Of a stretch of DNA of 64,000 bases, positions 25,922 to 56,325 are shown piece by piece (the stretch's first letter is position 1; each line of letters opens with the position of its first letter). The stretch comes from a virus. The position numbers were made by a program, and so were the translations under genes. The DNA lies in the IMG/VR virus record IMGVR_UViG_3300029092_000103. The stretch is one strand, 5' to 3'. The notes below the pieces were generated by a model that was given only the letters and a program-made list of their open reading frames with translations, was not told where the DNA came from and searched no databases.

Positions 25922-27318
25922 TGGGATTCTGGGAATGGATGGGATTTGAAAATCCAAGGGATTCTCCTAAAACAGAACAGCCGAAAGAGGGTCTGCCGCA
26001 GGTCACGGATAATGTCCGCGATTCCGGGCAGACCTTTGTGTTTGGCCGTTCCAATGCCGGGGAGCAGGTGGACGAGAAAGCCGCCATGCAGATCCCGACC
26101 GTGTATGCCTGTGTTCGTCTGCTGGCAGAGTCCATTGCGGCACTGCCACTGCATCTGTACCGGATGACCGATGATAACGGCAACAAGGAAAAGGCACGGG
26201 ATCATCCGCTGTACAAGATTTTGTATCGGCAGCCAAACCCGGAAATGACATCCTTTGTCTTCTGGGAAACCCTGATGACCCACTTGCTCCTCTGGGGCAA
26301 TGCCTATGCACAGATTGTCCGGGATGGTAAAAACACGGTGTTGGGTCTGTATCCGCTTTTGCCGGAGAATGTCGAGGTGGACCGTGATGAGAGCGGCGAA
26401 CTCTACTATATCTACCACGCATACACGGATGAAGTTCCGGGAGAGCAGAACAAGGATATCTATTTTCGCCGGGATGAAATCTTTCATGTGCCGGGGTTGG
26501 GCTTCAATGGCCTAATCGGTTTCTCACCGATTGCCATGATGAAGAACTCTCTCGGCACTTCCATTGCGGTGGACAAGTACGGCTCTTCCTTTTTTAAGAA
26601 TGGCGCACAGCCCAGCGGTGTGTTGGAACACCCCGGCGTCCTGAAAGACCCGAACCGTGTCCGGGATAACTGGGAAGCTGCCTACGGTGGTGCGGCCAAT
26701 GCGCATCGTGTGGCAGTGCTGGAAGAGGGCATGGTCTACAAACCAATCTCCCTGCCGCCAGAGGACAGCCAGTTCCTTGAAACGAAGCAGTTCTCGGTGA
26801 CGGAGATCTGCCGCATTTTCCGTGTGCCTCCGCATCTGGTAGCTGACCTGTCCAGAGCGACCTTTTCCAACATTGAATACCAGTCGCTGAACTTCGTGAT
26901 GCACAGCTTGACTCCGTGGCTTGTCCGTATCGAGCAGGGCATCATCAAGGATTTGCTGCTGGAAGAGGAGCAGGATACCTACTTTCCCAAGTTTAATGTG
27001 GACGGATTACTCCGGGGCGACTACCAGAGTCGGATGAACGGCTATGCCACCGGCATCAGCAATGGCTTCCTCTCCCCGAACGATGTGCATCGGCTCGAAA
27101 ACATGGACCTCATCCCGGCAGAGGAGGGCGGCGATGATTACTACCTGAACGGCGGCTATGTGAAGCTGAAAGATGCAGGTGTGGCGCAGCAGAATAAAGC
27201 GGCAGCAGTCCAGCAGAATCAGCCCAAGGAAACACAGACCGATCCGGAAGAAGAACCTGACAGCGATAACCGGCTGAGTGAGAGTAAGCCACGGAAAAAT
27301 GGAAGGAGAACCCGATGA
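25921..27318 (+). CDS. Portal protein (HK97 family)
   Basis: HK97-portal-like core (FWETLMTHLLLWGNAYAQIV..., FRVPPHLV) and gene position. Confidence 0.85.
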   Translation: MGFWEWMGFENPRDSPKTEQPKEGLPQVTDNVRDSGQTFVFGRSNAGEQVDEKAAMQIPTVYACVRLLAESIAALPLHLYRMTDDNGNKEKARDHPLYKILYRQPNPEMTSFVFWETLMTHLLLWGNAYAQIVRDGKNTVLGLYPLLPENVEVDRDESGELYYIYHAYTDEVPGEQNKDIYFRRDEIFHVPGLGFNGLIGFSPIAMMKNSLGTSIAVDKYGSSFFKNGAQPSGVLEHPGVLKDPNRVRDNWEAAYGGAANAHRVAVLEEGMVYKPISLPPEDSQFLETKQFSVTEICRIFRVPPHLVADLSRATFSNIEYQSLNFVMHSLTPWLVRIEQGIIKDLLLEEEQDTYFPKFNVDGLLRGDYQSRMNGYATGISNGFLSPNDVHRLENMDLIPAEEGGDDYYLNGGYVKLKDAGVAQQNKAAAVQQNQPKETQTDPEEEPDSDNRLSESKPRKNGRRTR

Positions 27319-28223
27319 AGAAATTCTGGAACTGGATCAAAAACAGTGATGACACCAGAATCCTCCGGCTGGAAGGACCCATCGATGAGGAATCTTTCTG
27401 GGGCGATGAGATCACGCCGCAGATGTTCCGGGATGAGCTGGAATCCGGCGAGGGGGATGTGACCGTCTGGATCAACAGTCCGGGCGGAAATGTGTTCGCC
27501 GCCGCCGAGATCTATACCATGCTTAAGGATTACAAGGGCAGCATCACGGTCAAGATCGATGCGATTGCAGCTTCGGCGGCATCTGTTGTCGCAATGGCCG
27601 GTGATACTGTCCAGATGAGTCCTGTCGCCATGCTGATGATCCATGACCCCAGCACCGTTGCGATGGGCAACACCAAGGACATGGAGAAGGCCATCGAGGT
27701 GCTGGAGGAAGTCAAGGAGAGCATCATCAATGCTTACGCTGCAAAGAGCGGCCTGACCCATGCCCGCATTGCCAACCTCATGAGCAATGAGACTTGGATG
27801 AATGCGAAGAAGGCAGTGGAGCTGGGCTTTGCAGACGAGATCCTCTTTGCAAAGAAAGAGGACGAGCCGGACAGTGACCCGGCAGACCCGGAGAATCCTG
27901 ATGATTCGGAGGAAAACCCAGACAGTAAACCGGGCGAGGACGGAGAAAAGCAGTCGCTCCAGATGGATGCGGCAGGGCACCTTTTCTCCAGTCGTCAGAT
28001 GGATTTAATCGTCCTGAACCGTCTGGGTGTGAAGCCGGAAGCTGTGGGACAGAAGCACACCGCGCCTGAGAAGCCGCCTGCTGACCCGAAACCATCCGCA
28101 GAACAGACCCCTCCGGCAGAACTGCCTGCCAACTCCAAACCCGTCCTTGATATGGACGGGAAGACCGAGGATGGCAGTATTCCTTACAATATCCTGATGA
28201 AGCAGCTTGAGTGCATGAAGTGA
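27315..28223 (+). CDS. Prohead maturation protease, ClpP-like (S14) family
   Basis: INSPGGNVFAAAEIY...AASAASVVAMAGD...MIHDP are the ClpP catalytic-region motifs. Confidence 0.85.
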   Translation: MKKFWNWIKNSDDTRILRLEGPIDEESFWGDEITPQMFRDELESGEGDVTVWINSPGGNVFAAAEIYTMLKDYKGSITVKIDAIAASAASVVAMAGDTVQMSPVAMLMIHDPSTVAMGNTKDMEKAIEVLEEVKESIINAYAAKSGLTHARIANLMSNETWMNAKKAVELGFADEILFAKKEDEPDSDPADPENPDDSEENPDSKPGEDGEKQSLQMDAAGHLFSSRQMDLIVLNRLGVKPEAVGQKHTAPEKPPADPKPSAEQTPPAELPANSKPVLDMDGKTEDGSIPYNILMKQLECMK

Positions 28224-29843: not shown

Positions 29844-30199
29844 TGATCGAAAAGCTGAATGAGCGGATCACGATTGAAAAAAGCACAGTCGTGACCGATA
29901 AGGTCGGAAACCATCGGAACACATGGGAGGAATATTTCACCTGCTTCGCCTACGTTTTGACCTATGAATCGCAGGAGGAAGATGGTGAGGTCACAGCCGA
30001 ACAGAAAAGCGTGGTGTTCACGGTCCGTTGGTGCAGTGAAACCAGAGGGCTGACCTCTACTGGTTACCGCATCCGCTTCCGAGAGCAGCTCTACGATATC
30101 GAATCCATTGACCCGATGAATTTCCAAAAGAAAACGCTGAAGATTCACTGCCGTTTGGAAAGGAGGCAGCCGGATGAGCAGAACCGTCAGCATCGATGA
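29843..30199 (+). CDS. Head closure / head-tail adaptor protein
   Basis: Assigned from position and size. Confidence 0.55.
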   Translation: MIEKLNERITIEKSTVVTDKVGNHRNTWEEYFTCFAYVLTYESQEEDGEVTAEQKSVVFTVRWCSETRGLTSTGYRIRFREQLYDIESIDPMNFQKKTLKIHCRLERRQPDEQNRQHR

Positions 30200-30551
30200 G
30201 ATGGCAGATGCCATCAATGAGGGCTTGAAAGAGTATGCAACCCTTGCCTCCACCGAGGTCAAGAAAGCTGTCCGCAAGTCTGCGAAAACGGTCAAAGACC
30301 AGATTTCCTCTAATGCCCCGTCCCGAACGGGTGCATACAAAGAAAGCTGGGTGGCGACCAAGCAATCTGAATCCAGCCAGAGCCTTCAGATGGTGGTGCA
30401 TTCCAAGAACCGCTATCAGTTGGCACATTTGCTGGAAAAAGGCCATGCCAAACGTGGTGGTGGCCGGGTGGCTGCAAGACCCCACATTGCTCCGGCAGAA
30501 CAGGCTGGTATCGAGCTGCTCCAATCCCTCATCGAAAAGGCACTGAAATAG
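30174..30551 (+). CDS. HK97 gp10-family tail-completion protein
   Basis: HLLEKGHAKRGGGRVAARPHI is the gp10 signature. Confidence 0.65.
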   Translation: MSRTVSIDEMADAINEGLKEYATLASTEVKKAVRKSAKTVKDQISSNAPSRTGAYKESWVATKQSESSQSLQMVVHSKNRYQLAHLLEKGHAKRGGGRVAARPHIAPAEQAGIELLQSLIEKALK

Positions 30552-30560
30552 GAGGTACAC

Positions 30561-30878
30561 ATGACCCACGAAGAAGTGAAAGCTCTGGTGGAGGAGATGG
30601 GGCTTCCGTATGCGTATGACCATTTTGCAGAAGGGAAGAGCCCTGACCCACCGTTTATCTGCTTCCTGTATCCGAAAGCCGAGAACTTCGGTGCGGACAA
30701 CCTTGTGTACCACCATTTCAACCGGCTGGACATTGAGGTGTACACCGATTATAAAGACCCGGATATGGAGGCAAGCATTGAAGAAGTCCTGACGGCGCAT
30801 GAACTCTACTATGAGAAAAGCGAGGTCTGGATCGAAACCGAAAAGATGTATGAAGTCCTGTATGAGCTGACTGTGTGA
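30561..30878 (+). CDS. Tail component / tail terminator-like hypothetical protein
   Basis: Assigned from position. RBS GGAGGT upstream. Confidence 0.45.
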   Translation: MTHEEVKALVEEMGLPYAYDHFAEGKSPDPPFICFLYPKAENFGADNLVYHHFNRLDIEVYTDYKDPDMEASIEEVLTAHELYYEKSEVWIETEKMYEVLYELTV

Positions 30879-30913
30879 GCCAGCCGCAGGGCTATTTTAT
30901 TGGGAGGTAACCT

Positions 30914-31531
30914 ATGTCGAAGAAAAGCAATAAGGTCAAATTTGGCCTGAAAAACTGCCATTATGCCAAGGCAACCTTTGACGAAGATGGCAGTGTCACC
31001 TATGCAAAGCCGGTCCGCATCCCCGGTGCAGTCAGCCTGTCGATGGATGCCAATGGCGAGATCGAGCCGTTTTACGCGGATAATGTTGCCTATTATGTTG
31101 TGAATAACAACTCCGGCTACGAAGGTGATCTGGAAATCGCACTGGTTCCGGAGAGCTTCCTCACGGACATCATGCACGAGGAGTTGGATGGCAACGGTGT
31201 TCTGGCAGAGAACGCCAACGTGGAGCTGGAGCATTTCGCATTCCTGTTCGAGTTCGATGGCGACCAGCGTCATACCCGTCATGTCTTTTACAACTGTGTG
31301 GCAAGCCGCCCTGCTGTTGAGGGTGAGACCACCGAGGACAGCAAAGAGGTCAAGACCGAAACGCTGAGCCTGCAGGCGACCCCTCTGGCAAACGGTTATG
31401 TCAAGGCCAAGACTGGTACCAACACCACCGATGAGGTTTACAACAAGTGGTACGATGCCGTCTACGAGCCGCAGGCGGAGGCGATGGACACCGCTGAACC
31501 CGGCCAGACCGAAGAGCAGCCGCAGGGCTGA
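30914..31531 (+). CDS. Major tail protein
   Basis: Assigned from position, size and composition. RBS GGGAGGT upstream. Confidence 0.65.
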   Translation: MSKKSNKVKFGLKNCHYAKATFDEDGSVTYAKPVRIPGAVSLSMDANGEIEPFYADNVAYYVVNNNSGYEGDLEIALVPESFLTDIMHEELDGNGVLAENANVELEHFAFLFEFDGDQRHTRHVFYNCVASRPAVEGETTEDSKEVKTETLSLQATPLANGYVKAKTGTNTTDEVYNKWYDAVYEPQAEAMDTAEPGQTEEQPQG

Positions 31532-31594
31532 GAAACACTTATACACCGCAGAGCTTCGACTCTGCCTACACTATTATAATAGGAGAACAAAACT

Positions 31595-32422
31595 ATGAAG
31601 AAGATCATTCCGCTGTTTGCATTTATTCTTGTTGTCTTTCTGGCCGTCTGCTCGTTTAGCATCATCCCTACCGGATACACTGGCGTGAAGACCAGTTTTG
31701 GTCAGATCCAGGAAACCACCATCCAGAGCGGCAAGCTCAACTTCTGCATTCCCTTTGTACAGAGCATCCACAAGGTCAACAACAAGCAGCAGGATAAGCA
31801 CATCGAGGCGCAGGTCTGGGGTGAAGCCTCCGACAAGACTCCGGTGTATGCCGCTGATGTCATTGTGACCTATCAGGTACTTCCTGAGAAGAGCGCATGG
31901 CTGTATGCGAATGTGTCCGACATCAAGAATCTGGTCGGTGATGAACTGGTGGCATCTGCCATCAAGTCTGCGATGGCAGAACTTGGTCCCAATGAAGTGA
32001 CAAACCGTACCAAGATTGAGCCTCTGGCTCAGCAGAAGCTGGCAGAGTCGCTGGAACAGAAATACGGCGAGGGCGTTGTGTTTGTGAACAAGGTCGTAAT
32101 CAACGATATGGATTTCGAGGATGCTTATAACGACGCAATCCAGCAGAAGTCCATTGCACAGCAGAACGCCGATAAGCAGAAGATTGAGAACGAAGCCGCC
32201 ATTGCCAAGGCAGAAGCTGACAAGCAGGTGGCAATCACCAATGCGGAGGCTGAAGCCCAGAAGACTTCCATTGCTGCAGAAGCGCAGGCCGAGGCAAACC
32301 GCAAGATTGCAGAGAGTCTGTCCTATACGCTGATCGAGTATCAGAAAGTTCAGAAGTGGGATGGCAAGCTGCCCACTGTGAGCGGTGGCAATGCTCTGGT
32401 GAGCATCGACCCGGCTGAGTAA
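31595..32422 (+). CDS. SPFH/band-7 (HflC/prohibitin-like) membrane protein; a moron inside the tail module
   Basis: N-terminal transmembrane segment (IIPLFAFILVVFLAV), an SPFH core, and an Ala/Glu/Gln-rich coiled-coil C-terminus. Flanked by duplicated terminator-like repeats at 31530-31566 and 32417-32456. Confidence 0.8.
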   Translation: MKKIIPLFAFILVVFLAVCSFSIIPTGYTGVKTSFGQIQETTIQSGKLNFCIPFVQSIHKVNNKQQDKHIEAQVWGEASDKTPVYAADVIVTYQVLPEKSAWLYANVSDIKNLVGDELVASAIKSAMAELGPNEVTNRTKIEPLAQQKLAESLEQKYGEGVVFVNKVVINDMDFEDAYNDAIQQKSIAQQNADKQKIENEAAIAKAEADKQVAITNAEAEAQKTSIAAEAQAEANRKIAESLSYTLIEYQKVQKWDGKLPTVSGGNALVSIDPAE

Positions 32423-32488
32423 GAAACACGATATACGGCAGAGCTTCGGCTCTGCCACTTTTACATGAAATTTTTGGAGGATACGATT

Positions 32489-32869
32489 ATGGCAGTTACG
32501 AAGAAAATCGAGATCGATGGCAAAGAAGTCACTTTCAAGGCCAGTGCCGCTGTGCCTCGCCTGTACCGCATCAAGTTCGGACGCGACATCTACAAAGACC
32601 TGCGCCAGCTGGAAAAGAGTGTGGGGGAGAACGACGAGGACAATTCCAACCTTGATCTGTTCAGTCTGGAGATGTTCGAGGATCTGGCATGGCTGATGGC
32701 CCGTCATGCAGACCCTGCGAATGTGCCGGACAGCCCGGAGGAGTTCCTTGACCAGTTCAACACCTTCTCCATCTACCAGATTCTGCCCCAGCTGATCGAA
32801 CTGTGGGGCCTGAATGTGCAGACCGAGGTGGAATCCCGAAAAAACCTCGCAAAAGTGAGCGGGAAATGA
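32489..32869 (+). CDS. Tail assembly chaperone (gpG-like)
   Basis: GGAGGA lies 7 nt before ATG 32489. Ends just after the slippery site. Confidence 0.6.
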   Translation: MAVTKKIEIDGKEVTFKASAAVPRLYRIKFGRDIYKDLRQLEKSVGENDEDNSNLDLFSLEMFEDLAWLMARHADPANVPDSPEEFLDQFNTFSIYQILPQLIELWGLNVQTEVESRKNLAKVSGK

Positions 32870-33030
32870 CCACCCCGCTCTTTCTGCTGCGCTGTGTGCA
32901 GCTCGGTATCAGCATCGCCGACCTCGACCTGCTGACCATCGGGTTGGTCAATGATATGTTCACGGAGCGACAGAATGACGATTATCCGTACAAAGAGCTG
33001 GCAAGTCAGTCGGACTTCGACCACTTCTAA
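32489..33030 (+). CDS. Tail assembly chaperone frameshift product (gpGT-like), made by a -1 programmed frameshift at A_AAA_AAC (32839-32845)
   Basis: The heptamer A AAA AAC sits in the G frame. The -1 frame continues open to 33030 as ...PKKPRKSEREMTTPLFLL... Confidence 0.55.
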
Positions 33031-33038: not shown

Positions 33039-33084
33039 CAGACGACCGTGCTTATATTGCAAACGAAATAAGCACAGTCGTCTG
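33039..33084 (+). terminator. 17-bp-stem hairpin terminator for the plus-strand tail genes
   Basis: CAGACGACCGTGCTTAT...ATAAGCACAGTCGTCTG with one mismatch. Confidence 0.6.
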
Positions 33085-33103
33085 ACAGCAGGGTATAAAA
33101 AAT

Positions 33104-33127
33104 CCCCCAGCCGTGCACAACTGGGGG
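33104..33127 (-). terminator. Terminator for the convergent minus-strand cassette
   Basis: CCCCCAG...CTGGGGG hairpin followed on the minus strand by TTTTTTAT. Confidence 0.6.
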
Positions 33128-33239
33128 AGAAAGAAGGTGGCCCGGAGGTCATCTTCCCGGTCTCAGACCTCGCAAGGTTACTGAAACCTGATCGCTAATG
33201 AATTATAGCTGATTGGGTGTAAATAGTCAACTAAGTATT

Positions 33240-33491
33240 TCATGCAGAAGCGGAATCGGTGGGTTTGCGTGTATCTTCAAAGACATTGCGAAGGTAATCA
33301 GGGCCTTCCATCCATAGGCCAGTAGAATAATCGAACAACTCCTTATAAGCAGGGGAAGTCGAAAACTCAAAGAATGCCTGATCAAAGGGGATGCCCGATT
33401 CGGCGCAGTAATCTTCGAGCATTGCCCGCATGACATTTACAGCACAAGACTCGCGCTGTTCGTCACTGACATTATAGGTGCTTGAAGTCAT
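33240..33491 (-). CDS. DUF3791-like small protein
   Basis: AAGGAG lies 8 nt before ATG on the minus strand. ...YKELFDYSTGLWMEGPDYL pattern. Confidence 0.5.
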   Translation of the reverse strand: MTSSTYNVSDEQRESCAVNVMRAMLEDYCAESGIPFDQAFFEFSTSPAYKELFDYSTGLWMEGPDYLRNVFEDTRKPTDSASA

Positions 33492-34044
33492 AGTTGTCAC
33501 TCCTTATAAATTCGAGAGATTGGATCGCTTTTTCGTTGCAGAAGCAGAACTGGTCTTCTAGGCGATTCGGCAGTAGCATTTTGATAGCAAAGCTATCGGC
33601 ATCTTCAGAGCCGGGTTCACCATAAGCGCGTGTGGTGTAAAGCTGTAAAGTGCGGGCAGTTTGGTCGTCGGCTATTTTTCCTCCGATGATGTCAAACTTG
33701 GCGTACTGTTCCCGGACATCTGGGAACAAGGTTCTTCTACGGTTTGAAGCAACAAAATGGAGCCAATTCCTATCAGCAGCATTGAATAGGTGAATGGCGA
33801 TATCGGGATTTAAATGGAGTTTGAAAACAGAAATGTAACCGGATGCTGTGCCAGAAGGCAGTTTCCCTTCGTTTACCTGTTTGTTTACAGACAGAGGAAC
33901 AAAACCTTGAGCCTGCTTGTAGGAGCTTGTGACGTAGAAACCGCGCCCGAAATCTTTGCCTTGTTTACATTTGCTAAGATCGATTTCGGACACCTGGATG
34001 AAACTGCCGTGATAGAGCAACATTCCGTTTGTTAATGTCAGCAT
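33472..34044 (-). CDS. DUF3990 domain protein
   Basis: LYHGSFIQVSEIDLSKCKQGKDFGRGFYVTSSYKQA is the DUF3990 N-terminal signature. Confidence 0.7.
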   Translation of the reverse strand: MLTLTNGMLLYHGSFIQVSEIDLSKCKQGKDFGRGFYVTSSYKQAQGFVPLSVNKQVNEGKLPSGTASGYISVFKLHLNPDIAIHLFNAADRNWLHFVASNRRRTLFPDVREQYAKFDIIGGKIADDQTARTLQLYTTRAYGEPGSEDADSFAIKMLLPNRLEDQFCFCNEKAIQSLEFIRSDNYDFKHL

Positions 34045-34262
34045 ACGGCAACACCTCGGCTTTTCAGCATTTCCTCGACATCATCCAAAGCGCACTCATA
34101 GCTGCTTAAATGGAGAAAGTCGTAACACCTGGCGATAAATCCAAACACATCATTATCCTGAAATATCTTCGCGCAGGCTTCAGGAGACTTTTTCCACTTG
34201 GATTGAGCCATACGGAAAACCCAGCACTGCATATCGGCAATATCAATTTGATGTTCACTCAT
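34038..34262 (-). CDS. DUF3791 domain protein (the usual partner of DUF3990)
   Basis: AAGGAGG lies 8 nt before ATG 34262 on the minus strand. ...FGFIARCYDFLHLSS... Confidence 0.55.
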   Translation of the reverse strand: MSEHQIDIADMQCWVFRMAQSKWKKSPEACAKIFQDNDVFGFIARCYDFLHLSSYECALDDVEEMLKSRGVAVC

Positions 34263-34479
34263 AGAGCATACCTCCTTTGAGTACAATTTTTCAATTTAAG
34301 TATAGCTCTTTTTTCGGCTTATAGCAACGAAAGATTTGTAAATTTCTAAGTTGCAAGCCCACTTCCCAAAAAAAGTAACTCACGAGTTAGTAACTTACGA
34401 GTATATTATTTTACCGCTTTAGCCTGTCTGCCTCGTGCAGATGGGCTTTTTTCATGCCCACGAGGAGGTGGTTACCCGC

Positions 34480-37400
34480 ATGGCATCCAGAATCCAGGGC
34501 ATCGCCGTTGAAATCGGCGGCGATACCACAAAGCTCTCCAAAGCACTGGAAGGTGTAAACAAATCAATAAAGGGGACGCAGTCCGGACTGAAGGATGTCA
34601 ACAAACTCCTGAAGCTGGACCCCTCGAATACTGAACTGGTCGTCCAGAAGCAGAAGATGCTCAAGGATGCCATTGAAGCCACCAAGGAAAAGCTGGCAAC
34701 CTTAAAGACCGCTGCACAGCAGGCCAATGAACAGCTTGCCAATGGTGAAATCACCCAGCAACAGTACGATGCTCTCCAGCGTGAGATTGCTGAGACAGAA
34801 CAGAATCTGAAATCCCTGCAGGAGCAGGCGGCGACCACTAACGCGACCCTTGCCAAAATCGATGAGGCCGGCGAAAAATTACAGAACCTTGGCTCTTCGG
34901 TCGAAAATGTGGGTAAGAAGTTCCTTCCTGTGACCGCAGCTGTGACCGGCCTCGGCACAGCGGCAGTGAAAACAGCGGCTGACTTCGATGCTGAGATGAG
35001 CAAGGTTTCTGCTATTTCCGGTGCGACCGGGGCTGACTTTGACAAACTCCGTGCGAAAGCCCGTGAGATGGGCGCAAAGACCAAATTCTCCGCAACAGAA
35101 GCCGCCTCCGCGATGGAGTATATGGCGATGGCCGGTTGGCGCACCGAAGATATGCTTTCTGGTATTGAGGGCATTATGAACCTCGCGGCCGCTTCCGGTG
35201 AAGACCTCGCCACGACCTCGGATATCGTCACGGACGCCCTTACCGCTTTCGGCCTGTCGGCTTCAGATTCCGGTCATTTTGCGGATATCCTTGCGGCAGC
35301 TTCTTCCAACGCGAACACCAACGTCAGCATGATGGGCGAGACGTTCAAGTACTGTGCGCCTATCGCCGGCGCGTTGGGATTCTCGGCAGAGGATACCGCA
35401 GAAGCCATCGGCCTCATGGCAAACAGCGGTATCAAGGCTTCGCAGGCTGGTACTTCTCTGCGTTCCATTATGAACAACCTTGCCGGTGATGTGACCTTTG
35501 TCGGCAAGAACATCGGTGAGGTCACGATTGCTACCAGCAATGCAGACGGCAGTATGAGAAGCCTGAATGACATTCTTGCAGACTGCCGTGTGGCTTTTGC
35601 AGGATTGTCTGAATCCGAAAAGGCAGCCAATGCGGAAGCTCTGGTCGGCAAGAATGCAATGTCCGGCTTCCTCGCTCTGATGAATGCCGGCGAGGGGGAT
35701 ATCAATAAACTCCGTGGTGCAATCGAGGGATGCGATGGCGCATCCGAACGCATGGCAGAAACCATGCAGGACAATTTAAGTGGTCAGCTCACCATTCTGA
35801 AATCTCAGTTGGAGGAGCTGGCCATTTCTTTTGCCGATATCCTGATGCCGACCATCCGCAAAATCGTATCGGCGGTGCAGCAGTTTGTTGATAAGCTGAA
35901 CAGCATGGACGACAGCACCAGAGAGGTGATTATCCGAGTCGCGCTGCTGGCAGCTGCGATTGGTCCGCTGCTCATTGTTCTGGGTAAGACCATATCAACG
36001 GTCGGCACAGCGATGCGGGGATTCAGTTCTCTCGCAAAGGGTGTCCGGCTGCTCATTACCCACGTGGGTGGTGCCAGCGGTGCATTCGGCAAACTGGGCG
36101 CAGTGCTGGGCGGCCTATCCGGGCCGGTTGTGGCGGTGGTCGCGGTCATCGGTACACTGGTAGCAGCATTTCTCGATTTGTGGAATACAAACGAGGAATT
36201 CCGTACAGCAATCACTGGCATCTGGAACGATATCGTATCCAAAGTGAAAGCCTTCTGCGACCAGTTGACGCAGCGGATCAATGCACTCGGCTTTGATTTT
36301 AAGGATATCACTCAGGTTCTGCAATCAATCTGGAACGGATTCTGTCAGTTGCTGGCCCCACTGTTCGAAGGCGCATTTCAGAATATCTCTACTATCCTCG
36401 GCGTCGTGCTTGATTCGATGGTCGGTCTGCTCGATGTTTTCTCTAACATTTTCTCCGGAAATTGGCGTGGAGCGTGGGAGTCGGCAAAGAGTATTTTCTC
36501 TGGAATCTGGCAGGGCATCCGCTCGATTCTCTCTGTTACCCTTACGACTCTGCGGAATACGCTGGATGTTTTCCTTGGATTCTTCGGTACAAGCTGGCAG
36601 TCTGTCTGGAGCGGCATCCAGCAGTTCTTTGTGTCGATTTGGAGTGGAATCAGCGGATTTTTCTCGGATACGGCTTCGTCCATTTATTCGGTGGCAATCT
36701 CTGTGTTTACGGGGATTTCCGGATTCTTCACTTCGATTTTGACCTCGATCCAGACGACCTTCCGCACGACATGGACGGCGATTTCGCAGTCGGTTTCGTC
36801 TGCACTGACCGTGATCCACGACACTGTGGTGCGTGTATGGATGGCAATCTCGACTGTAATCTCGTCTGTGATGACTTCCATCTGTGAGACAATCCTGCAG
36901 GTTTGGTCCGGAATCTACACCACGATCCAGCCTCTGCTGGAGGCATTCCAATACCTGTTCAAGACGATTTGGCAGGCCATTCAGATTTTGGTCGGTGCTG
37001 CACTGACGGAAATTCACTCGAAAATCGTTTCGATTTGGAATTCTATCGTTGCATTTGTGACACCCCTACTTTCTGGCCTACAGTCGGTTTTCTCGGCAGC
37101 ATGGACAGACATCCAGCTGGCGATCTCTACGGTGCTGACGGCAATCCGGACTTCGGTGACATCTATCTGGAATGCAATCGTATCGTTCCTCTCGCCGCTG
37201 CTGACCGGAATCCAGACTCGGATGACCTCCGCATGGATGGCAATCCAGAATGTGATTTCGACTACTCTCTCGACAATCCATTCGGTGGTGTCGTCTATTT
37301 GGATGGCTATTAGCAGTAAAATTTCGTCTGTGGTTTCGGGCATCCGGTCCGTGATTTCTTCCGGCTGGAACTTCATGAAATCCACAGTTACGAATCTCAG

Positions 37401-39471
37401 CAACGAAATCCGCTCGGCAGCGACAAGTGCATTCGAGTCTATGAAGTCTGGAATCTCGTCCACAATTTCGGGCATCCAGACTACGATTTCGACCGGATTC
37501 AACAATGCAGTTTCGTTCATCAAGGGGTTGATAGGGCAGGCGTTCTCGTGGGGCTCTGACCTGATCGGAAACATCGTGTCGGGCATCAAGTCACGGATTC
37601 AGGATGTGACAAATGCAGTGACCGGTGTGGCAGATAAGATCCGCTCAGTCCTTCACTTTTCTGTGCCGGATGAAGGCCCACTTTCCGATGCAGATGAGTA
37701 TATGCCCGACTTCATGAAGCTGCTGGCGACCGGAATTAAGAAAAATGTCCGTGTTGTCGTGAAGGCGGTGCGTGGTCTGGCTTCGTCTATGAGTGACAAT
37801 CTGACCACTCCCGTCGATTCTCTGAGCGACTGGATGGATTCTGTAGTCGGTGGTTTTGCAACGACCATTCACAGAAGCGAACGCGGAATCGGCTCGGCGG
37901 CAGGAAGCGTGGGTCGCAGCATTCAATCGCAGCTCATGTCCGGACTTTCCGGCGTGAAGACGCAGTTCCAGCAGCTCTGGACCGACCTGCAGGGTATCAC
38001 CAAGGCAGCAGTCGGCAACATGAGCGATGAAGTGAAGCAGGGCTTCGCGGATATGAAATCTTCCATTAGTGAACTGAGTCAGGAAACCAGTTCACTTGGC
38101 AGTGCAATCCGCAGTCTCGGCGACACTTTCAACTCTGATTTCCTGAAAAATCTGGGAAATGGCATCAGCAAAATCGGCGATACGGTAGACAGCGTCATCC
38201 GCATTGTGGACAAGATCGGCTCCATGAAGACCACGATTGGAAATCTCGGAAGTACGATGCAGAACCTCGGCAACATTCTCGGTACAGAGAATGGCGGTGG
38301 TCTGCTGTCTAACCTTGGCAGTTTCCTGTCGAAAATCGGTACTGCGGATGGCGGCCAGATCGTAGCCAAATTCGGAGAGTTAATCTCCGGTTTGACCTCT
38401 AAAATGGGCGGTCTGGGGCAGGGAATTTCCAGCATCCTCTCTAAACTGGGAAGCCTCGGCTCCAGCAGTAGCGGAATCCTATCGAGCCTCGGCAGTCTGG
38501 CGTCCGGTGTGATCTCCAAACTTGGAGGTCTGGGCGGCAGCCTGACCGGATTGCTCTCCGGAATTGGCTCATCGCTGGGTAGCATCGCCGGGTCGGTCGG
38601 CTCAGCATTGGCAGGTCTGTTCGGGTCAGTCGGCTCTACCGTCTCCAGTCTGGCCGCTGGCGCAGGCACAGCCCTTGCTGGCGTGGCAAGTTCAGCAGGT
38701 GGCCTCCTCGCATCGGCAGGTACAGCACTCGCGGGTCTGGCTGGTCCGGCCGGCATCGCAGTCGCGGCAGTCGGCGGTATCGGCCTTGGTTTGACCGCTC
38801 TCTGGAAGCATTGCGATGGTTTCCGTGAGGGTGTGACGAATATTTGGAACAAAGTGACATCGGTATTCTCGAAGGGCGCGGCGGCGATCAAGAACGGAAT
38901 CTCCAATGCGGCGTCTGCGATAAGCAGCGTGGCATCGTCTATTTGGAGTGGCATTAAGAATGTGACCTCGTCTGCCTGGAACTGGGGTAAGGATATCGTC
39001 GGTGGTATCGCCGGTGGCATCAAAAAAGGGGTGAGCTGGGTCGGTAGTGCGGTGAAGAGCGTAGCAAAGGGAATCCGCTCGTTCCTTCACTTCTCTGTGC
39101 CGGACGAAGGCCCGTTGTCTGATGCTGACACCTATATGCCGGACTTTATGAAGCTCTTGACGAGTGGCATCAAGGGCAGCGAGGGCGGTCTGCTGAAACA
39201 GGTCCGCTCTATGGTATCTAAGGTACAGCAAGGAATGGCGGGCATCAGTTCCTTCAGCCTGCCGGAACTGACCCTGCCGCACTTTGACGGTTTCGCATGG
39301 AACTTCCCACAGGCGGCACTGGCCGGAGGCAACACTACGCGGACGACAAACCTTGGCGGTGTGTATATCACGGTCAACGGTTACAACGCCCGGAACGATG
39401 ATGAACTGGCACAGACCGTTGCCGATAAAATCAACGGCATGATTCATGAAGATGATTCGGTATTCAAGTAA
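34480..39471 (+). CDS. Tail tape measure protein (1,664 aa)
   Basis: N-terminal coiled-coil and a long repetitive Ser/Gly/Ala/Ile-rich middle. An internal motif of about 33 aa, LHFSVPDEGPLSDAD(E/T)YMPDFMKLL, occurs twice. Confidence 0.85.
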   Translation: MASRIQGIAVEIGGDTTKLSKALEGVNKSIKGTQSGLKDVNKLLKLDPSNTELVVQKQKMLKDAIEATKEKLATLKTAAQQANEQLANGEITQQQYDALQREIAETEQNLKSLQEQAATTNATLAKIDEAGEKLQNLGSSVENVGKKFLPVTAAVTGLGTAAVKTAADFDAEMSKVSAISGATGADFDKLRAKAREMGAKTKFSATEAASAMEYMAMAGWRTEDMLSGIEGIMNLAAASGEDLATTSDIVTDALTAFGLSASDSGHFADILAAASSNANTNVSMMGETFKYCAPIAGALGFSAEDTAEAIGLMANSGIKASQAGTSLRSIMNNLAGDVTFVGKNIGEVTIATSNADGSMRSLNDILADCRVAFAGLSESEKAANAEALVGKNAMSGFLALMNAGEGDINKLRGAIEGCDGASERMAETMQDNLSGQLTILKSQLEELAISFADILMPTIRKIVSAVQQFVDKLNSMDDSTREVIIRVALLAAAIGPLLIVLGKTISTVGTAMRGFSSLAKGVRLLITHVGGASGAFGKLGAVLGGLSGPVVAVVAVIGTLVAAFLDLWNTNEEFRTAITGIWNDIVSKVKAFCDQLTQRINALGFDFKDITQVLQSIWNGFCQLLAPLFEGAFQNISTILGVVLDSMVGLLDVFSNIFSGNWRGAWESAKSIFSGIWQGIRSILSVTLTTLRNTLDVFLGFFGTSWQSVWSGIQQFFVSIWSGISGFFSDTASSIYSVAISVFTGISGFFTSILTSIQTTFRTTWTAISQSVSSALTVIHDTVVRVWMAISTVISSVMTSICETILQVWSGIYTTIQPLLEAFQYLFKTIWQAIQILVGAALTEIHSKIVSIWNSIVAFVTPLLSGLQSVFSAAWTDIQLAISTVLTAIRTSVTSIWNAIVSFLSPLLTGIQTRMTSAWMAIQNVISTTLSTIHSVVSSIWMAISSKISSVVSGIRSVISSGWNFMKSTVTNLSNEIRSAATSAFESMKSGISSTISGIQTTISTGFNNAVSFIKGLIGQAFSWGSDLIGNIVSGIKSRIQDVTNAVTGVADKIRSVLHFSVPDEGPLSDADEYMPDFMKLLATGIKKNVRVVVKAVRGLASSMSDNLTTPVDSLSDWMDSVVGGFATTIHRSERGIGSAAGSVGRSIQSQLMSGLSGVKTQFQQLWTDLQGITKAAVGNMSDEVKQGFADMKSSISELSQETSSLGSAIRSLGDTFNSDFLKNLGNGISKIGDTVDSVIRIVDKIGSMKTTIGNLGSTMQNLGNILGTENGGGLLSNLGSFLSKIGTADGGQIVAKFGELISGLTSKMGGLGQGISSILSKLGSLGSSSSGILSSLGSLASGVISKLGGLGGSLTGLLSGIGSSLGSIAGSVGSALAGLFGSVGSTVSSLAAGAGTALAGVASSAGGLLASAGTALAGLAGPAGIAVAAVGGIGLGLTALWKHCDGFREGVTNIWNKVTSVFSKGAAAIKNGISNAASAISSVASSIWSGIKNVTSSAWNWGKDIVGGIAGGIKKGVSWVGSAVKSVAKGIRSFLHFSVPDEGPLSDADTYMPDFMKLLTSGIKGSEGGLLKQVRSMVSKVQQGMAGISSFSLPELTLPHFDGFAWNFPQAALAGGNTTRTTNLGGVYITVNGYNARNDDELAQTVADKINGMIHEDDSVFK

Positions 39472-49029: not shown

Positions 49030-51420
49030 ATGAGTGCTGGTACGGATTTCCTTGCAAGTTTGCAGAAAAAGACTGTGAAAAGTACAGTCCAACAGAAACA
49101 GCAGAAGAGAGCGAATGCATCCGCTGTGGATGTCTCGGCTTTACTGGAAGCCGCTCTCAGGCAGAAGAAACCTACGGAAGCTGTGGCAGATGTTCGTCAA
49201 AGTGCGGATGTCGCCACAGCTTCTTTTTTACCACCGACTGACACGCATCAAGGCAAGTCTACTCAACAAAAGCCGAAAAGCGCGTCAGATAAAGCAGTAC
49301 TACAGAAGCAATCAACCTCAAAATCCAAAGACATCGTTGATGCCGGTATCACAGCCCTTATCCAGAAAGCTCTGGATGCCAAAAAGGTTATGGAGCAGCC
49401 GGATATTGCAGAAAGGCTGCAAAGTAGTATGGAGAGCGAGTTCACACAGCTTTTCGCTGCCGAGAATGAACCGCAGGAAAGCAAGTTTGTTTCGACTGCG
49501 ACATTCCGCACCACCAAAAAGAAGATTGGAAGCATCCGTGTGGCGGCTTATATCCGCGTGTCCACGGATATGAGCGACCAGGAGAACTCATACGAAACGC
49601 AGGAAAAGTATTTTAATCAGCTGATTCAAAGCAATCCGGAATGGAATGCAGTCGGTGTGTACTCCGATTACGGTATCTCCGGCACTTCCAAGGAAAAGAG
49701 AACTGGATTCCGCAGGCTGATGCGCCACTGTAAGGATGGCAAAATCGACCGCATTGTGTGCAAGTCCATTTCCCGATTTGCCCGAAATACGGCTGACTTT
49801 ATGACGGCACTGGATACCCTGCACGACTGCGGAGTGACGATTCTGTTCGAGAAAGAAAATCTGGATACGGCAGACCCGACCAGCGACTTCATCCTTACAA
49901 CGCTGGCCGCCATCGCACAGGAAGAAAGCCGCAGCATTTCCGGTAACATCCGACAGGGCAATAAGATGCGCTTTCCGAAAGGGGAAGTTCCCAACAAGAT
50001 TATGTACGGATACCGCTACAACGGGAAGATGGTTACTTCCGAGAGCGGATATGAGTATAAAGACATCGAGGTCGTGGAAGAAGAAGCCAAGGTCGTCCGG
50101 CGCATTTTCAACGAAGTCGTGGAAGGCAAAGCCTATACGGAAATCGCAAGGGGACTGAATCTGGATAAGATTCCGGCTCCGGAGTCAGATATGGCGAGGG
50201 CCAGAAAGCGGAATTCCAAGAAAGGACAGCTGAACAGTGATTTACAGGACGGCTGGACTGGAGGGAATATCACGAGAATCGTCCGTGCCGAGCGATACAT
50301 GGGAGCAGTTCTCATTCAGAAGGTGTTCACACCGGATTATCTGACCCATACGGTTCAGAAAAACAACGGTGAAGTTCCACAGTATTTTGTCCGGAACCAC
50401 CATCCGGCAATCATTGATGAGGATTTGTTTCAAAAAGCGCAGGAAGTCGTAAAGGCAAACAGTGAACTGTATAACAGGACAAGGTTCAAGAAGAAGCCGA
50501 GAGCATTTTCTCAGAGGCTCATCTGTGGGGAGTGTGGACGGTTCTACTCTGTGACAAATGGAAACGGAAGCAATCCCATTTGGAGATGCCCTACGAGCAG
50601 CCAGACGACTGGAAAGTGCATCTGCCATGCAGAGAAAGTATACGAGGAACAGATTGTTCGTGTATTCCGTAAGGCGATTCTGGAACGGTTCCGGCTGACC
50701 ATCAAGCCCATTCACGACAATGTGGCTGTGGCAGATATCATGAGCGGACGTTTCAAAGAGCAGTATGACAACTTCACACCGGAAGCGGATTCCTTTGTGA
50801 GCCAGATGCTTGCAAGACTGGAAAGCATTCAAAAGCTGGACTTCATGGAACGCGACCGTGCTTTTTATAAGAAGCAGATTGCCGCCGCCCACACCAGTGT
50901 GGAAAGCACCAATAAGAAGATTCGGCTTCTGAAAAGTCAGGTAGATGTGATGCATACTCGTCTGGAAGTCCTCGGAGATGAGATGATCAGTCCGGCTTCC
51001 ATTGAGGAAAAGAAAAAACTCATTGAGAAGCTGGAGCAGGATGTTCAAAAAGACACAGACACTGAGCAGAAGCTGACCGAACAGCTCGACTACATGGAAA
51101 ACTACTGGGAAGAGCTGGAGAGCGACTATGAACGCAGGGAAAAGGCAATCGAGTGGATGAAGAACCTCCCGGTGGGTCGGGATGGTACGGTGGCTTTCTT
51201 AAATGAAGTGACCGAAGAACACTGCAAGGCATTTATCCTTTCGATTACCATCTATTCACCGCTGAAGTTCACGGTTCACTGGTTTGATGATACCAAGACC
51301 GAGGTGCAGATGGATTCCAACATTGAAGATTACCGCAATACCGCAAGCTACTATGACGGGCATACGATGCGTGATGGCAGCCAGCGGAAAAAGTATGTAA
51401 GAAGAACCAGAAGAAAATAA
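49030..51420 (+). CDS. Large serine recombinase (integrase), with an N-terminal extension of about 155 aa
   Basis: Resolvase catalytic domain (RVAAYIRVSTDMSDQENSYETQ...ISGTS...SISRFARNT), then recombinase, Zn-ribbon (CGECGRF...WRC) and coiled-coil regions. Confidence 0.85.
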   Translation: MSAGTDFLASLQKKTVKSTVQQKQQKRANASAVDVSALLEAALRQKKPTEAVADVRQSADVATASFLPPTDTHQGKSTQQKPKSASDKAVLQKQSTSKSKDIVDAGITALIQKALDAKKVMEQPDIAERLQSSMESEFTQLFAAENEPQESKFVSTATFRTTKKKIGSIRVAAYIRVSTDMSDQENSYETQEKYFNQLIQSNPEWNAVGVYSDYGISGTSKEKRTGFRRLMRHCKDGKIDRIVCKSISRFARNTADFMTALDTLHDCGVTILFEKENLDTADPTSDFILTTLAAIAQEESRSISGNIRQGNKMRFPKGEVPNKIMYGYRYNGKMVTSESGYEYKDIEVVEEEAKVVRRIFNEVVEGKAYTEIARGLNLDKIPAPESDMARARKRNSKKGQLNSDLQDGWTGGNITRIVRAERYMGAVLIQKVFTPDYLTHTVQKNNGEVPQYFVRNHHPAIIDEDLFQKAQEVVKANSELYNRTRFKKKPRAFSQRLICGECGRFYSVTNGNGSNPIWRCPTSSQTTGKCICHAEKVYEEQIVRVFRKAILERFRLTIKPIHDNVAVADIMSGRFKEQYDNFTPEADSFVSQMLARLESIQKLDFMERDRAFYKKQIAAAHTSVESTNKKIRLLKSQVDVMHTRLEVLGDEMISPASIEEKKKLIEKLEQDVQKDTDTEQKLTEQLDYMENYWEELESDYERREKAIEWMKNLPVGRDGTVAFLNEVTEEHCKAFILSITIYSPLKFTVHWFDDTKTEVQMDSNIEDYRNTASYYDGHTMRDGSQRKKYVRRTRRK

Positions 51421-51455
51421 GAGCCAGTCATAAGGCTGGCAGAAAGGGGCAGATT

Positions 51456-53922: not shown

Positions 53923-54321
53923 ATGAAAAAATTATCGTGGTTATCGGTAGAGGATTATGGAACAACACCATTGGAAGTGATAATCGTGAGTGCAATGAAA
54001 GGGTATCTGGGAGAAATGCCAGAGAGTAAAGCATTGAAAAAGATCGAGGAAGTCTTTGACCCAAAGGTCATCCGGCTGTTCGGTGACGATGGCGCACCAA
54101 TGCCCGTACAAAGCACTGTTGACGGTGCAAAATTCGCTGCATTCATCGACGAGGCAGTAGCTGATGTGGTGAAACGAATGGAATCGGACATGAGCGACAT
54201 CGGGCAGATTGCACTGGAGGCTTTGCGAGATATAGACGGGAAGGTGATCGTTGAAACGATGAGTCCTGAGTTTGTGAGCTTCCTAGGGGATGTGTATAGA
54301 AGTTTGAAATTTGACAAATAA
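53923..54321 (+). CDS. Hypothetical protein (132 aa)
   Basis: ATG 53923 follows GGAGAGA. The ORF track's upstream extension is hydrophobic and of low complexity. Confidence 0.4.
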   Translation: MKKLSWLSVEDYGTTPLEVIIVSAMKGYLGEMPESKALKKIEEVFDPKVIRLFGDDGAPMPVQSTVDGAKFAAFIDEAVADVVKRMESDMSDIGQIALEALRDIDGKVIVETMSPEFVSFLGDVYRSLKFDK

Positions 54322-54418
54322 AAACGGAAAACCCGTTGATATTTTCTGGCGATAGGGGTATAATAAGATTGCAAGAAAATAAAAACGATAAATCCGTTTT
54401 TAGAAGGGAGAATGATAC

Positions 54419-55570
54419 ATGAAAATACTCCGTATCACCGCACAGGGACTTCCACTGTTTAAAGAAAACCTGGATATCTGTTTTTACACACAGCAGCGCG
54501 TAAGTGAGGATGATAAGTGTAGTCTATATAATTTGATTGATAATTATTATCTTCACACTACCAATGCGTTTATTGGAATCAATGCGTCTGGTAAGACCTC
54601 TGTGTTAAAGGTTATCAATTTGGCTCTGAACATTGTAAAGAATGAGCCCATTAATCATGTAGAGGCAAAAACTATTCTTGGTGGAGCAAGAGAAGCTACG
54701 ATTTGCACTTATTTTTATGATAATCGTAAATATGTCTGCTGCCTAGAAACTGTAATTACGGCAAAAAAAGCAAAGGCAGGAGATTATGTGTATTCGATCC
54801 TGTCCGAAAGACTGTGGGAAAAATCAATTGTCAGTATCAAGTCGAAGAAGTATTTGACGGATTTCACCGGAATGGAGCCTGTGGCATCGCGTAATAGCGA
54901 TGAAGCATATCTTTCAGATGATGTCAGCTTTATCATTGCACATAATAAAAAAGCAAATGATACGGTGGAAGTGTTTAGCTTACTTTCTTACACGAATGTG
55001 AATGTGCTTCCCTTTACTGAGGATATTCCATTGGAAGTGATTGCTTTTCTGGACCCAACCATTGAAAAATTGTGCTTCGAGCAAACAGAGGGAAAGACAT
55101 TTATCCATTTGAAATTCCGAAATGAAGATGAAATTGTTTTAAACAATGCAGTGGACCTTGAGCAGTATCTGTCTTCCGGTACAATCAAAGGTATTATTAC
55201 ATTCTCAATGGTGAAGGAGGTACTTCAATCTGGTGGATACTTGCTGGTAGATGAAATTGAAAACCATTTTAATAAGGAAATTGTAACAACACTGATTCGT
55301 TTCTTTATGGATGGCCGACTTAACAAAAAAGGTGGAACACTGATTTTTACAACACATTATCCAGAGTTGTTGGATGAATATGACCGCAATGATGGAATTT
55401 GTATCGTAAGAAACCGTAATGGCATCACAGTAGAAAACCTGAGCTATATATTGAAACGTAATGATATTAAAAAAAGCGATGCATATCAGAGTGGATTTCT
55501 GGAAGGAACGACCCCTGCGTATGAGGCCTATATGCGCTTGAAGAAGAACCTGGCTGCTTCAATTCATTAA
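54419..55570 (+). CDS. AAA_21/ABC-like ATPase (AbiLi-like, OLD-family ATPase-like)
   Basis: Walker A GINASGKTSV. Walker B/D-loop LLVDEIENHFN. H-loop TTHYPELL. The sequence is AT-rich relative to the prophage. Confidence 0.75.
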   Translation: MKILRITAQGLPLFKENLDICFYTQQRVSEDDKCSLYNLIDNYYLHTTNAFIGINASGKTSVLKVINLALNIVKNEPINHVEAKTILGGAREATICTYFYDNRKYVCCLETVITAKKAKAGDYVYSILSERLWEKSIVSIKSKKYLTDFTGMEPVASRNSDEAYLSDDVSFIIAHNKKANDTVEVFSLLSYTNVNVLPFTEDIPLEVIAFLDPTIEKLCFEQTEGKTFIHLKFRNEDEIVLNNAVDLEQYLSSGTIKGIITFSMVKEVLQSGGYLLVDEIENHFNKEIVTTLIRFFMDGRLNKKGGTLIFTTHYPELLDEYDRNDGICIVRNRNGITVENLSYILKRNDIKKSDAYQSGFLEGTTPAYEAYMRLKKNLAASIH

Positions 55571-55582
55571 GGAGGCGGCAGA

Positions 55583-56104: not shown

Positions 56105-56325
56105 GAAACGGCAGTCATGTACAAGGCCACAGGAGATATAAGAAAAGAAGCGCATAATTGAAAATAATTGGCCCACTGGCGCACTGTGTAGAATCCTACA
56201 TGGTACGTTGGTGGGTTTCTTTTTTTGCCTTACCCGCATGAACCACAGACAGCACCTCGGTGTGATCCGAAGTGCAGCTGTGGCTTATGCGGGCTTTTTT
56301 GTTATATGGTCAACGAGTTACAAAG

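Follow-up and report, generated by a model that had tools for sequence, protein, structure and literature searches.

The stretch of viral DNA analysed here, referred to as the window, comprises 64,000 nucleotides (nt) of the IMG/VR record IMGVR_UViG_3300029092_000103 and carries a single gene for an SPFH/Band-7 protein between the genes for the major tail protein and the tail assembly chaperone G (Table 1). The plus strand around this gene shows the standard order of a siphophage late operon, and the window as a whole represents a temperate phage that encodes a DNA polymerase A, a VapE primase, an SNF2 helicase, three methyltransferases, TerS/TerL, portal, a ClpP-type protease, an HK97-type capsid, tail proteins, holin, endolysin and two tandem large serine recombinases. 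An earlier note on this DNA had described the SPFH gene as a moron inserted at this place and flanked by a duplicated terminator sequence. As judged from sequence comparison with related phages, positions 31532-32488 are a single-gene insertion of ~0.96 kb that defines one sub-clade of Candidatus (Ca.) Heliusvirales. The SPFH gene is a moron in the comparative sense ('more DNA') only; it is not a recent cassette, nor probably an independently expressed one.

Insertion relative to related phages

A blastn comparison of the region with phage genomes returned only gut phages of the Ca. Heliusvirales type, at 64-72% identity. Both flanks were matched in 17 phage records, with 0.95-1.04 kb less DNA between them. 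In five annotated relatives (NatCom_42228, NatCom_13861, NatCom_19828, NatCom_31361 and Terrisporobacter phage TPDSL_ph1), the tail gene-chaperone spacings are 1, 13, -4, 11 and 13 nt, and neither an SPFH gene nor a hairpin was found at the tail gene/chaperone junction in any of the five. Since the genes of these relatives abut without a hairpin, the extra DNA corresponds to the whole of 31532-32488, including the two hairpins described below. The sub-clade that carries it consists of temperate siphophages found in Faecalibacterium, Blautia and other Clostridia.

Relatives lacking the gene had been expected to show the major tail gene followed directly by the chaperone gene, with one copy of the repeat left at the junction. 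The two genes do abut, but an ancestral single copy was not seen. Single-copy genomes exist in the form of two IMG/VR contigs (loci L028, at 5610-5690, and L037), in which the SPFH cassette has been precisely lost and one hybrid hairpin is left, flanked on the left by sequence of the left copy and on the right by that of the right copy. The flanking DNA of these contigs is 100% identical to SPFH-carrying genomes over 2.0 kb on the left and 1.5 kb on the right, which marks them as recent precise deletions between the 18-20-bp repeats and not as ancestral empty sites; the exactness of the loss further indicates that the flanking repeats serve as recombination substrates. Two hairpin copies do flank the gene, but the idea of a duplicated insertion site is not supported. 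A target-site duplication was rejected, because the junction of distant relatives contains neither hairpin nor intergenic region, and the genomes with one copy arose by recent deletion. The term moron fares similarly: the gene is extra with respect to relatives, but it has a native GC content at third codon positions (GC3), shows no sigma-70-like promoter, is old and lies on the late-operon strand.

Table 1. Coordinates of the SPFH locus and its surroundings in the window
Feature	Coordinates	Strand	Remarks
HK97-gp10-like tail completion protein	30174-30551	+	upstream in late operon
Tail terminator	30561-30878	+	late operon
Major tail (tube) protein, 205 amino acids (aa), left neighbour	30914-31531	+	phrog_88, E = 6.6e-57; Pfam PF06488 phage tail tube protein, E = 1.7e-8
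Left intergenic region	31532-31594	+	repeat copy 1 (31532-31566), then TACAC..TATAAT and Shine-Dalgarno AGGAG before SPFH ATG
SPFH/Band-7 gene, 275 aa	31595-32422	+	Pfam Band_7, phrog_200
Cluster of deletion end points, SPFH codons 47-58	31733-31766		in defective relatives
Right intergenic region	32423-32488	+	repeat copy 2 (32423-32456), Shine-Dalgarno GGAGG before chaperone ATG at 32489
Tail assembly chaperone G, 126 aa, right neighbour	32489-32869	+	phrog_709, E = 1.3e-39
-1 frameshift extension (GT form) of chaperone	32839-33030	+	slippery A_AAA_AAC at 32839-32845
Three genes: 86-aa open reading frame (ORF), DUF3990, DUF3791	33240-34286	-	between chaperone and tape measure
Tape measure gene	34435-39471		

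A membrane-anchored SPFH protein

The product of 31595-32422 is a single-pass membrane-anchored SPFH protein. It matches Pfam Band_7 (PF01145) over residues 23-209 (E = 3.6e-16, 60.2 bits against a cut-off of 23.6) and PHROG 200 (E = 7e-40), and it has one hydrophobic segment, at residues 4-22 (mean Kyte-Doolittle 2.72), with no other in the protein. The AlphaFold2 model (mean pLDDT, the predicted local distance difference test score, 71) has a helix at residues 5-20, an alpha/beta core at ~66-174, made up of strands at 66-95 and 162-174 with helices at 97-157, and one long helix at 176-253; the C-terminal tail KWDGKLP is conserved. Foldseek searches of the PDB returned prohibitin, erlin, HflK/C, stomatin, QmcA and flotillin, all with probability 1.00, while a PDB sequence search matched prohibitin-2, QmcA and HflC at 1e-5 to 1e-3. 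The domain layout that had been read from the translation, i.e. an N-terminal anchor, an SPFH core and a long C-terminal helix, is thus borne out by Pfam, AlphaFold2 and Foldseek.

The label 'HflC-like' stands at the level of the SPFH superfamily but no further. Scores against the NCBIfam equivalog models are 31.8 bits (cut-off 159.4) for TIGR01933 hflK, 24.5 (cut-off 427) for NF008259 HflC and 19.3 (cut-off 134.4) for TIGR01932 hflC, i.e. 19-32 bits against cut-offs of 134-427, and orthology to HflK/HflC was rejected on that ground. The hflK-hflC gene pair is likewise absent, with a single SPFH gene in the window and in all related loci. A basic N-terminus (KK, or KKHR in relatives) precedes the anchor and suggests a topology with the N-terminus inside and the C-terminus outside. 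PADLOC-DB 2.0 contained no family matching the SPFH protein at E <= 0.01, and the protein was accordingly dropped as a known or candidate defence system.

A conserved hairpin on both sides of the gene

The same repeat follows the stop codons of the major tail gene and the SPFH gene, as the earlier note had observed, and the pair is unique in the 64 kb. The left copy (31532-31566, GAAACACTTATACACCGCAGAGCTTCGACTCTGCC) lies directly after the major-tail stop TGA (31529-31531) and the right copy (32423-32456, GAAACACGATATACGGCAGAGCTTCGGCTCTGCC) directly after the SPFH stop TAA (32420-32422), with the consensus GAAACAC-N-ATAC-N-GCAGAGCTTCG(A/G)CTCTGCC. Their 19-nt core, GCAGAGCTTCGRCTCTGCC, occurs exactly twice in the window when up to 3 mismatches are allowed (chance expectation 0.03; two or more matches in 0/100 shuffles), and the pair is the top direct repeat in a repeat search of the window, at 88% identity over 26 nt. 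Each copy contains a hairpin. On the left, GCAGAG-CTTCGA-CTCTGC (31548-31565) is reduced by a C.A mismatch to 6 bp around a loop of 6 nt (-10 kcal/mol, z = -2.0). On the right, GGCAGAGC-UUCG-GCUCUGCC (32437-32456), followed by ACUUUUACAU, pairs over 8 bp and is closed by the loop UUCG (-18.8 kcal/mol, z = -3.4).

The 5' flank GAAACAC..ATAC is common to both copies only in the lineage of the window. In most relatives, the likeness between left and right consists of the hairpin, a TACAT motif and the Shine-Dalgarno/start region. The conserved TACAT and Shine-Dalgarno sequence downstream of each hairpin indicate that the paralogy of the two intergenic regions extends over their full length. At all 214 loci with intact tail-SPFH-chaperone order, which were pooled from viral, metagenome and isolate-genome scans, the hairpin is present in both intergenic regions; intact loci without flanking repeats, part of what the earlier note had named as evidence against its reading, are absent from this set. 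The seven inner pairs are kept in all 37 distinct variants of the hairpin, with A-U to G-C compensations, and the loop is mostly C(UUCG)G. One pair is G.U in 33/37 variants; read from the opposite strand, it would be a C.A mismatch. In shuffled controls, 0/500 attained the pairing or covariation score of the real hairpins. The conserved pairing and the G.U pair point to a function in the sense RNA.

The evidence for termination differs between copies and between clades. In the window, the right copy is followed by 5 T in 8 nt, and a T-rich tract of this kind occurs only at the right copy of the main clade of relatives; it is absent after the left copy and after both copies of the second clade (clade 2). 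The right hairpin together with ACTTTTAC scores terminator-like in the window and in the main-clade locus L013 but not in the clade-2 locus L088.

Conservation and host spread

Close relatives were collected as 80 viral contigs with a major tail protein 84-96% identical to that of the window, 75 of which reach the chaperone gene. A full-length SPFH gene lies at the same position in 67 of the 75. Synteny is kept at SPFH protein identities of 93%, 81% and 79%, the pairwise ratio of nonsynonymous to synonymous substitution rates (dN/dS) is 0.03-0.10 at a dS of 0.25-1.15, and 88 positions do not vary across an alignment of 24 sequences that covers identities of 73-93%. With a GC content of 0.517 and a GC3 of 0.649, the gene resembles the neighbouring late genes (GC3 0.60-0.73). 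Taken together, these data show that the gene is old in the sub-clade, vertically inherited along with its neighbours, under strong purifying selection and functional.

Pseudogenised SPFH alleles were also observed in otherwise intact tail modules at loci L025, L055 and L081. A few clade-2 relatives carry a free-standing gene of 231 aa for an HNH_3 + AP2 homing endonuclease directly after the right hairpin and before the chaperone gene (L086, 2983-3678; also L087, L100, L153 and L202). In a scan of genome contigs, the tail/SPFH module was found at ~78-93% nucleotide identity per segment (loci L198-L207) in isolates of Faecalibacterium prausnitzii, F. intestinale, Blautia faecis, Blautia sp. 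and Clostridium fessum, and it is present as well in metagenome bins assigned to Lawsonibacter, Clostridium sp. and Faecalibacterium. The isolates belong to different families, which suggests that the host range is unusually broad or that the module was recently transferred between families.

Expression signals

The SPFH gene lies on the strand of the late operon and has its own Shine-Dalgarno sequence. Upstream of the gene, consensus scans of the window, the main-clade locus L013 and the clade-2 locus L088 detected no sigma-70-like promoter on the plus strand. A TATAAT hexamer at 31575-31580 has no -35 element and lies directly upstream of the Shine-Dalgarno sequence (31581-31585), so that a transcript starting ~7 nt after the hexamer (31586-31588) would begin at or just past that sequence and have a leader without it. 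A sigma-70 promoter belonging to the SPFH gene itself was rejected on these two grounds, its absence from three lineages and a TATAAT too near the Shine-Dalgarno sequence for a normal leader. The sequence TTTACA-16-TACGAT in the right intergenic region was also discarded as a promoter of the chaperone gene, since its -10 element abuts the ATG. Late co-transcription with the tail operon appears the likeliest mode of expression from these signals.

Comparison with known systems

The closest precedent by position is gene 15 of phage HK97 (gp15), the original 'moron' (PMC3594210). Both it and the SPFH gene are extra genes for single-pass membrane proteins in a tail operon beside the chaperones, both are absent from related phages and both have bacterial homologues outside prophages (PMC3594210). 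HK97 gene 15, however, sits between chaperone and tape measure genes, whereas the SPFH gene lies one junction upstream. Gene 15 has its own promoter and terminator, a deviant GC content and demonstrated expression from the prophage, in contrast to the native GC3 and the lack of a recognisable promoter of the SPFH gene. The SPFH gene is also clade-wide and not sporadic, and the two proteins are unrelated (YebO-like versus SPFH).

By family, the nearest phage proteins are the members of PHROG 200, a large family, annotated as SPFH, 'lipoprotein' or prohibitin-family proteins, which share 23-30% identity over 89-99% of the length. Examples are carried by the Faecalibacterium phages Toutatis and Lelie, the Bacillus phages AR9/PBS1, Escherichia phage Skarpretter and Stenotrophomonas phage DLP5. 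In the phages examined, these genes occupy early/replication neighbourhoods beside methyltransferases, helicase/primase or dUTPase and, unlike the SPFH gene of the window, lie outside the tail operon and not between hairpin repeats. The PHROG 200 phage proteins are annotated by domain only; in a literature search, neither a tested function for them or other phage SPFH proteins nor a mention of SPFH in papers on Heliusvirales was found.

Among cellular proteins, HflK/HflC of Escherichia coli, which associate with FtsH, resemble the phage protein in their N-terminal anchor, SPFH domain and long coiled-coil helix and in the orientation predicted for it, outside the cytoplasm (fold matches 7vhq, 7wi3 and 9cz2), but they form a hetero-pair, whereas the phage has one gene, and the phage protein is not an orthologue. 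The cages of prohibitin, erlin, stomatin and QmcA (8rrh, 9o9u, 9oh9 and 8z5g) are the best sequence and fold matches and have the same domain order, though at only 14-23% identity and in comparison with a monomer model of the phage protein. QmcA has a YbbJ (NfeD) partner, unlike the phage SPFH gene, which has none adjacent to it. The nearest non-phage homologue found is a chromosomal Clostridia gene (300 aa, MT835486.1, locus L003), whose product shares 43.7% identity with the phage protein over 95% of the length and agrees with it in architecture and in a (K/E)W(D/N)G.LP tail. Its surroundings are bacterial (amidases, sfsA and butyrate kinase) and it has no flanking hairpins; a chromosomal Clostridia SPFH gene of this kind is a plausible source of the phage gene.

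Possible functions of the SPFH gene

Phage-borne SPFH genes and tail-operon morons are already known, and the SPFH gene of the window is a real but fairly ordinary phage add-on gene that is unusually conserved and unusually placed. The reading that we favour, with about an even chance of being correct, is that of an accessory late gene fixed in its clade, the product of which forms a ring on the membrane during lytic growth, while the hairpins shape dosage and allow precise loss. According to this model, the gene would be transcribed with the tail operon during lytic growth, and the protein would build a ring or cage of the type formed by HflK/C, prohibitin and QmcA, placed on the outer side of the cytoplasmic membrane. 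Such a cage would enclose or regulate a membrane client, which may be an FtsH-type protease, a DNA-entry receptor or channel, or the holin. The hairpins would act on the transcript as partial terminators or 3'-end stabilisers in the late operon and so set the dosage of tail tube, SPFH protein and chaperone; as direct repeats of 18-20 bp they would also permit occasional exact loss of the cassette. The SPFH protein would be an accessory protein of the infection cycle and not a part of the virion. The SPFH genes of other phages, among them Escherichia phage Skarpretter and similar isolates from lytic screens, lie in early/replication modules, which argues for an infection-cycle role of the wider family.

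Several observations weigh against this account. The SPFH gene is disrupted or lost in ~11% of close relatives, and the allele at locus L328 is frameshifted by a 7-nt duplication (CCAGATC) at codon ~36 (around 3065-3075); together, the disrupted, lost and frameshifted copies indicate that the gene is dispensable for prophage maintenance. The C-terminal ORF of the L328 allele, P0114 (221 aa), represents a protein cluster of 358 members from public metagenomes, of which the locus of the representative was the one inspected. Model confidence is low at residues 21-58 and 261-275, and the proposed topology derives solely from the positive-inside rule. Prokaryotic SPFH proteins usually have an NfeD protease as their operon partner, and next to the phage gene there is no gene for one. 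The term 'terminator' is weakened by the clade-2 relatives, in which neither hairpin is followed by a U-tract. The promoter scan used a crude sigma-70 consensus, which would miss clostridial or phage-factor-dependent promoters, and morons in late operons, such as HK97 gene 15 and lambda lom, are expressed from prophages (PMC3594210).

The last point leads to the alternative that the gene is a moron for lysogenic conversion or superinfection exclusion, modelled on HK97 gp15, Ltp, SieA or T5 Llp, which would be transcribed from the repressed prophage and whose membrane cage would block DNA entry or otherwise exclude phages. We consider this possible, if on the unlikely side. An extra gene in a tail operon beside the chaperones, in the region of HK97 gene 15 (PMC3594210), would fit it, as would the membrane anchor with a domain predicted to face outwards, the annotation of PHROG 200 members as 'lipoprotein' and the defence-type cargo in the next slot downstream (PDC-M13 candidates, Abi_2 and YoeB/RelB). 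The TATAAT hexamer at 31575-31580 and the terminator-like hairpin downstream also speak for it. The hexamer, however, has no -35 element and a start from it would leave the leader without a Shine-Dalgarno sequence, a promoter-like site was not found in any of the three lineages scanned, and PADLOC returned no match. The gene is also native in composition and near-universal in its clade, whereas the truly variable defence cargo of this phage is encoded on the opposite strand and is foreign in GC3. The earlier note had envisaged a part in defence, exclusion or the lysis-lysogeny decision, which is conceivable. For the last of these, the protein would be a modulator of host FtsH of the HflK/HflC type that tunes the decision by analogy with the turnover of lambda CII/CIII, which we judge quite improbable. 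It belongs to the SPFH superfamily, shares domain order and predicted outward topology with HflK/C and matches these proteins weakly in sequence and fold, but it scores far under the HflK/HflC equivalog cut-offs, is encoded by a single gene and not by a K/C pair, and is matched equally well by prohibitin, erlin and stomatin; in addition, a late tail operon would be the wrong time for a lysogeny decision.

A position between the tail tube and chaperone genes, probable co-transcription with them and near-uniform presence in the clade would also suit a component of the virion or of tail assembly, e.g. a membrane platform for tail building or a structural protein. This is very improbable given that the gene is absent from all more distant members of the order, which have the same tail module, is precisely deleted in L028 and L037, on viral contigs of 47.8 and 29.4 kb, is disrupted by frameshifts or internal deletions in several tail modules that are intact in other respects, and has homologues in the early/replication modules of other phages; moreover, SPFH proteins are not known as a virion class. 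The proportion of copies that are disrupted or lost (~11%) and the many deletion derivatives could finally be taken as signs of a functionless passenger kept by linkage. Scarcely any probability attaches to this idea, which is effectively refuted by the signature of selection, i.e. a dN/dS of 0.03-0.10 at near-saturated dS across clades and the 88 invariant positions.

Few temperate phages of human-gut Clostridia are as widespread as Ca. Heliusvirales, and a strongly conserved membrane-anchored SPFH protein in their tail operon offers a tractable entry to what phage SPFH proteins do. The locus also illustrates that 'moron by position' and 'moron by behaviour' can part: the SPFH gene acts like a core late gene of its clade, while the neighbouring slot between chaperone and tape measure, by contrast, acts as a true hot spot of defence cargo.

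Deletion end points within the SPFH gene

Among the 120 best matches in the protein database, in which only fusions that keep ~78% or more of the SPFH protein appear, many fuse the N-terminus of another phage protein to SPFH residues ~50-275. The fusion partners include TerS, the ClpP protease, DUF2800, DUF2815, the exonuclease domain of the DNA polymerase and several uncharacterised proteins. The corresponding points in the DNA are the right-hand ends of clean, large deletions (4 to ~30 kb) with variable left ends and microhomologies of 3-5 nt. At loci L005/L006, for example, 23842 is joined to 31747 across CAT, a 7.9-kb deletion in DNA that is otherwise 99.8-99.9% identical to the window, and at L007/L008, 27636 is joined to 31735 across GCTGA. 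Further junctions end at 31747 (L009/L010), 31739 (L133) and 31744 (L329), and an internal SPFH deletion from 31746/50 to 32121/24 (L052/L060/L074/L335) starts at the same spot. In total, at least 13 independent junctions fall in codons 47-58, against ~8 in the other 46 of the first 58 codons; a binomial estimate with 20% expected gives P ~3e-5, for boundaries that were chosen after seeing the data. Part of the cluster signal may be ascertainment bias. In DNA-anchored samples, end points are spread from the tail gene through the SPFH gene, and a smaller cluster of end points was seen at SPFH codons 1-7.

Several trivial or specific origins were considered for the cluster and set aside. Assembly chimeras are contradicted by the TerS, ClpP and DNA-polymerase fusions, each of which occurs in two independent samples or assemblers. 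The HNH-AP2 homing endonuclease of L086/L087 is not supported as its cause, as genomes with and without the endonuclease gene share an identical hot-spot sequence, and a DNA hairpin at the hot spot (TCTGCA/TGCAGA) is present in the main clade only and absent in clade 2, where most junctions occur. A packaging end was dismissed because only 2 of 10 nearby contig ends lie at the hot spot, which is not significant. P0114 was rejected as a hot-spot event, since L328 carries the 7-nt duplication and the gene caller restarts at V55.

The cluster invites a further reading, in which the hairpin-bounded SPFH gene is a fragile or targeted site, in a very widespread lineage of gut phages, that is broken recurrently in codons 47-58, while the intact gene provides a late extracytoplasmic cage masking the DNA-entry site. 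We regard this combination as unlikely. Within it, the candidates for the breaking agent are a sequence-tolerant nuclease (CRISPR-Cas or a phage-borne endonuclease) or a physical DNA end, and microhomology joining would then yield one-sided deletions of 4 to ~30 kb that remove head and tail-tube genes. If true, active prophages would be turned into fixed defective ones, and the intact gene would give the PHROG-200 family its first assignable role. A real deletion hot spot would be relevant to the question of how key gut commensals come to carry defective prophages.

Neighbouring genes and the adjacent cargo slot

A variable slot for defence cargo with foreign composition is located one gene beyond the SPFH gene, between chaperone T and the tape measure gene, and not at the SPFH position itself; it corresponds to the position of HK97 gene 15 (PMC3594210). 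In the window, this slot holds the minus-strand trio, in which Pfam DUF3990 (E = 6.6e-33) and DUF3791 (E = 1.4e-10) were recognised. The DUF3990 and DUF3791 genes match the PADLOC candidates PDC-M13 (E = 1e-33) and PDC-M10, and the GC3 of the trio (0.47-0.49) is foreign compared with that of the late genes (0.60-0.73). Relatives carry Abi_2 (L004) or YoeB/RelB together with Abi_2 (L092) in the same slot. Terminator-like inverted repeats were noted between chaperone T and the trio, at 33039-33084 and 33103-33128.

The start of chaperone G is placed at the ATG at 32489. An upstream in-frame ATG exists at 32465, and relatives annotate a start with MAVTKK. The T frame is an ORF at 32803-33030 that overlaps the end of G in the -1 frame and ends at 33030; the 54-aa T ORF was found in all relatives. 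Upstream of the tail genes, the ClpP-type prohead protease (27315-28223) has weak precomputed Pfam matches to NfeD1b_N and SDH_protease, which were seen on the fusion protein P0092, and the NfeD-like match may be coincidental.

An exact 13-nt repeat, CAGCCGCAGGGCT, brackets the major tail gene. One copy (30881-30893) lies just upstream of the ribosome-binding site of this gene and the other (31517-31529) forms its last codons; by our own estimate, ~0.05 such repeats are expected by chance in 2.5 kb. Two regions noted at the end of the prophage (49030-53753 and 54000-62000) comprise the two tandem large serine recombinase genes and, after them, a low-GC segment (0.40-0.43) that encodes an AAA_21/AbiEii-like ATPase, an AAA_25 ATPase and a third serine recombinase (57907-59760); this is probably a second integrated element adjoining the prophage.

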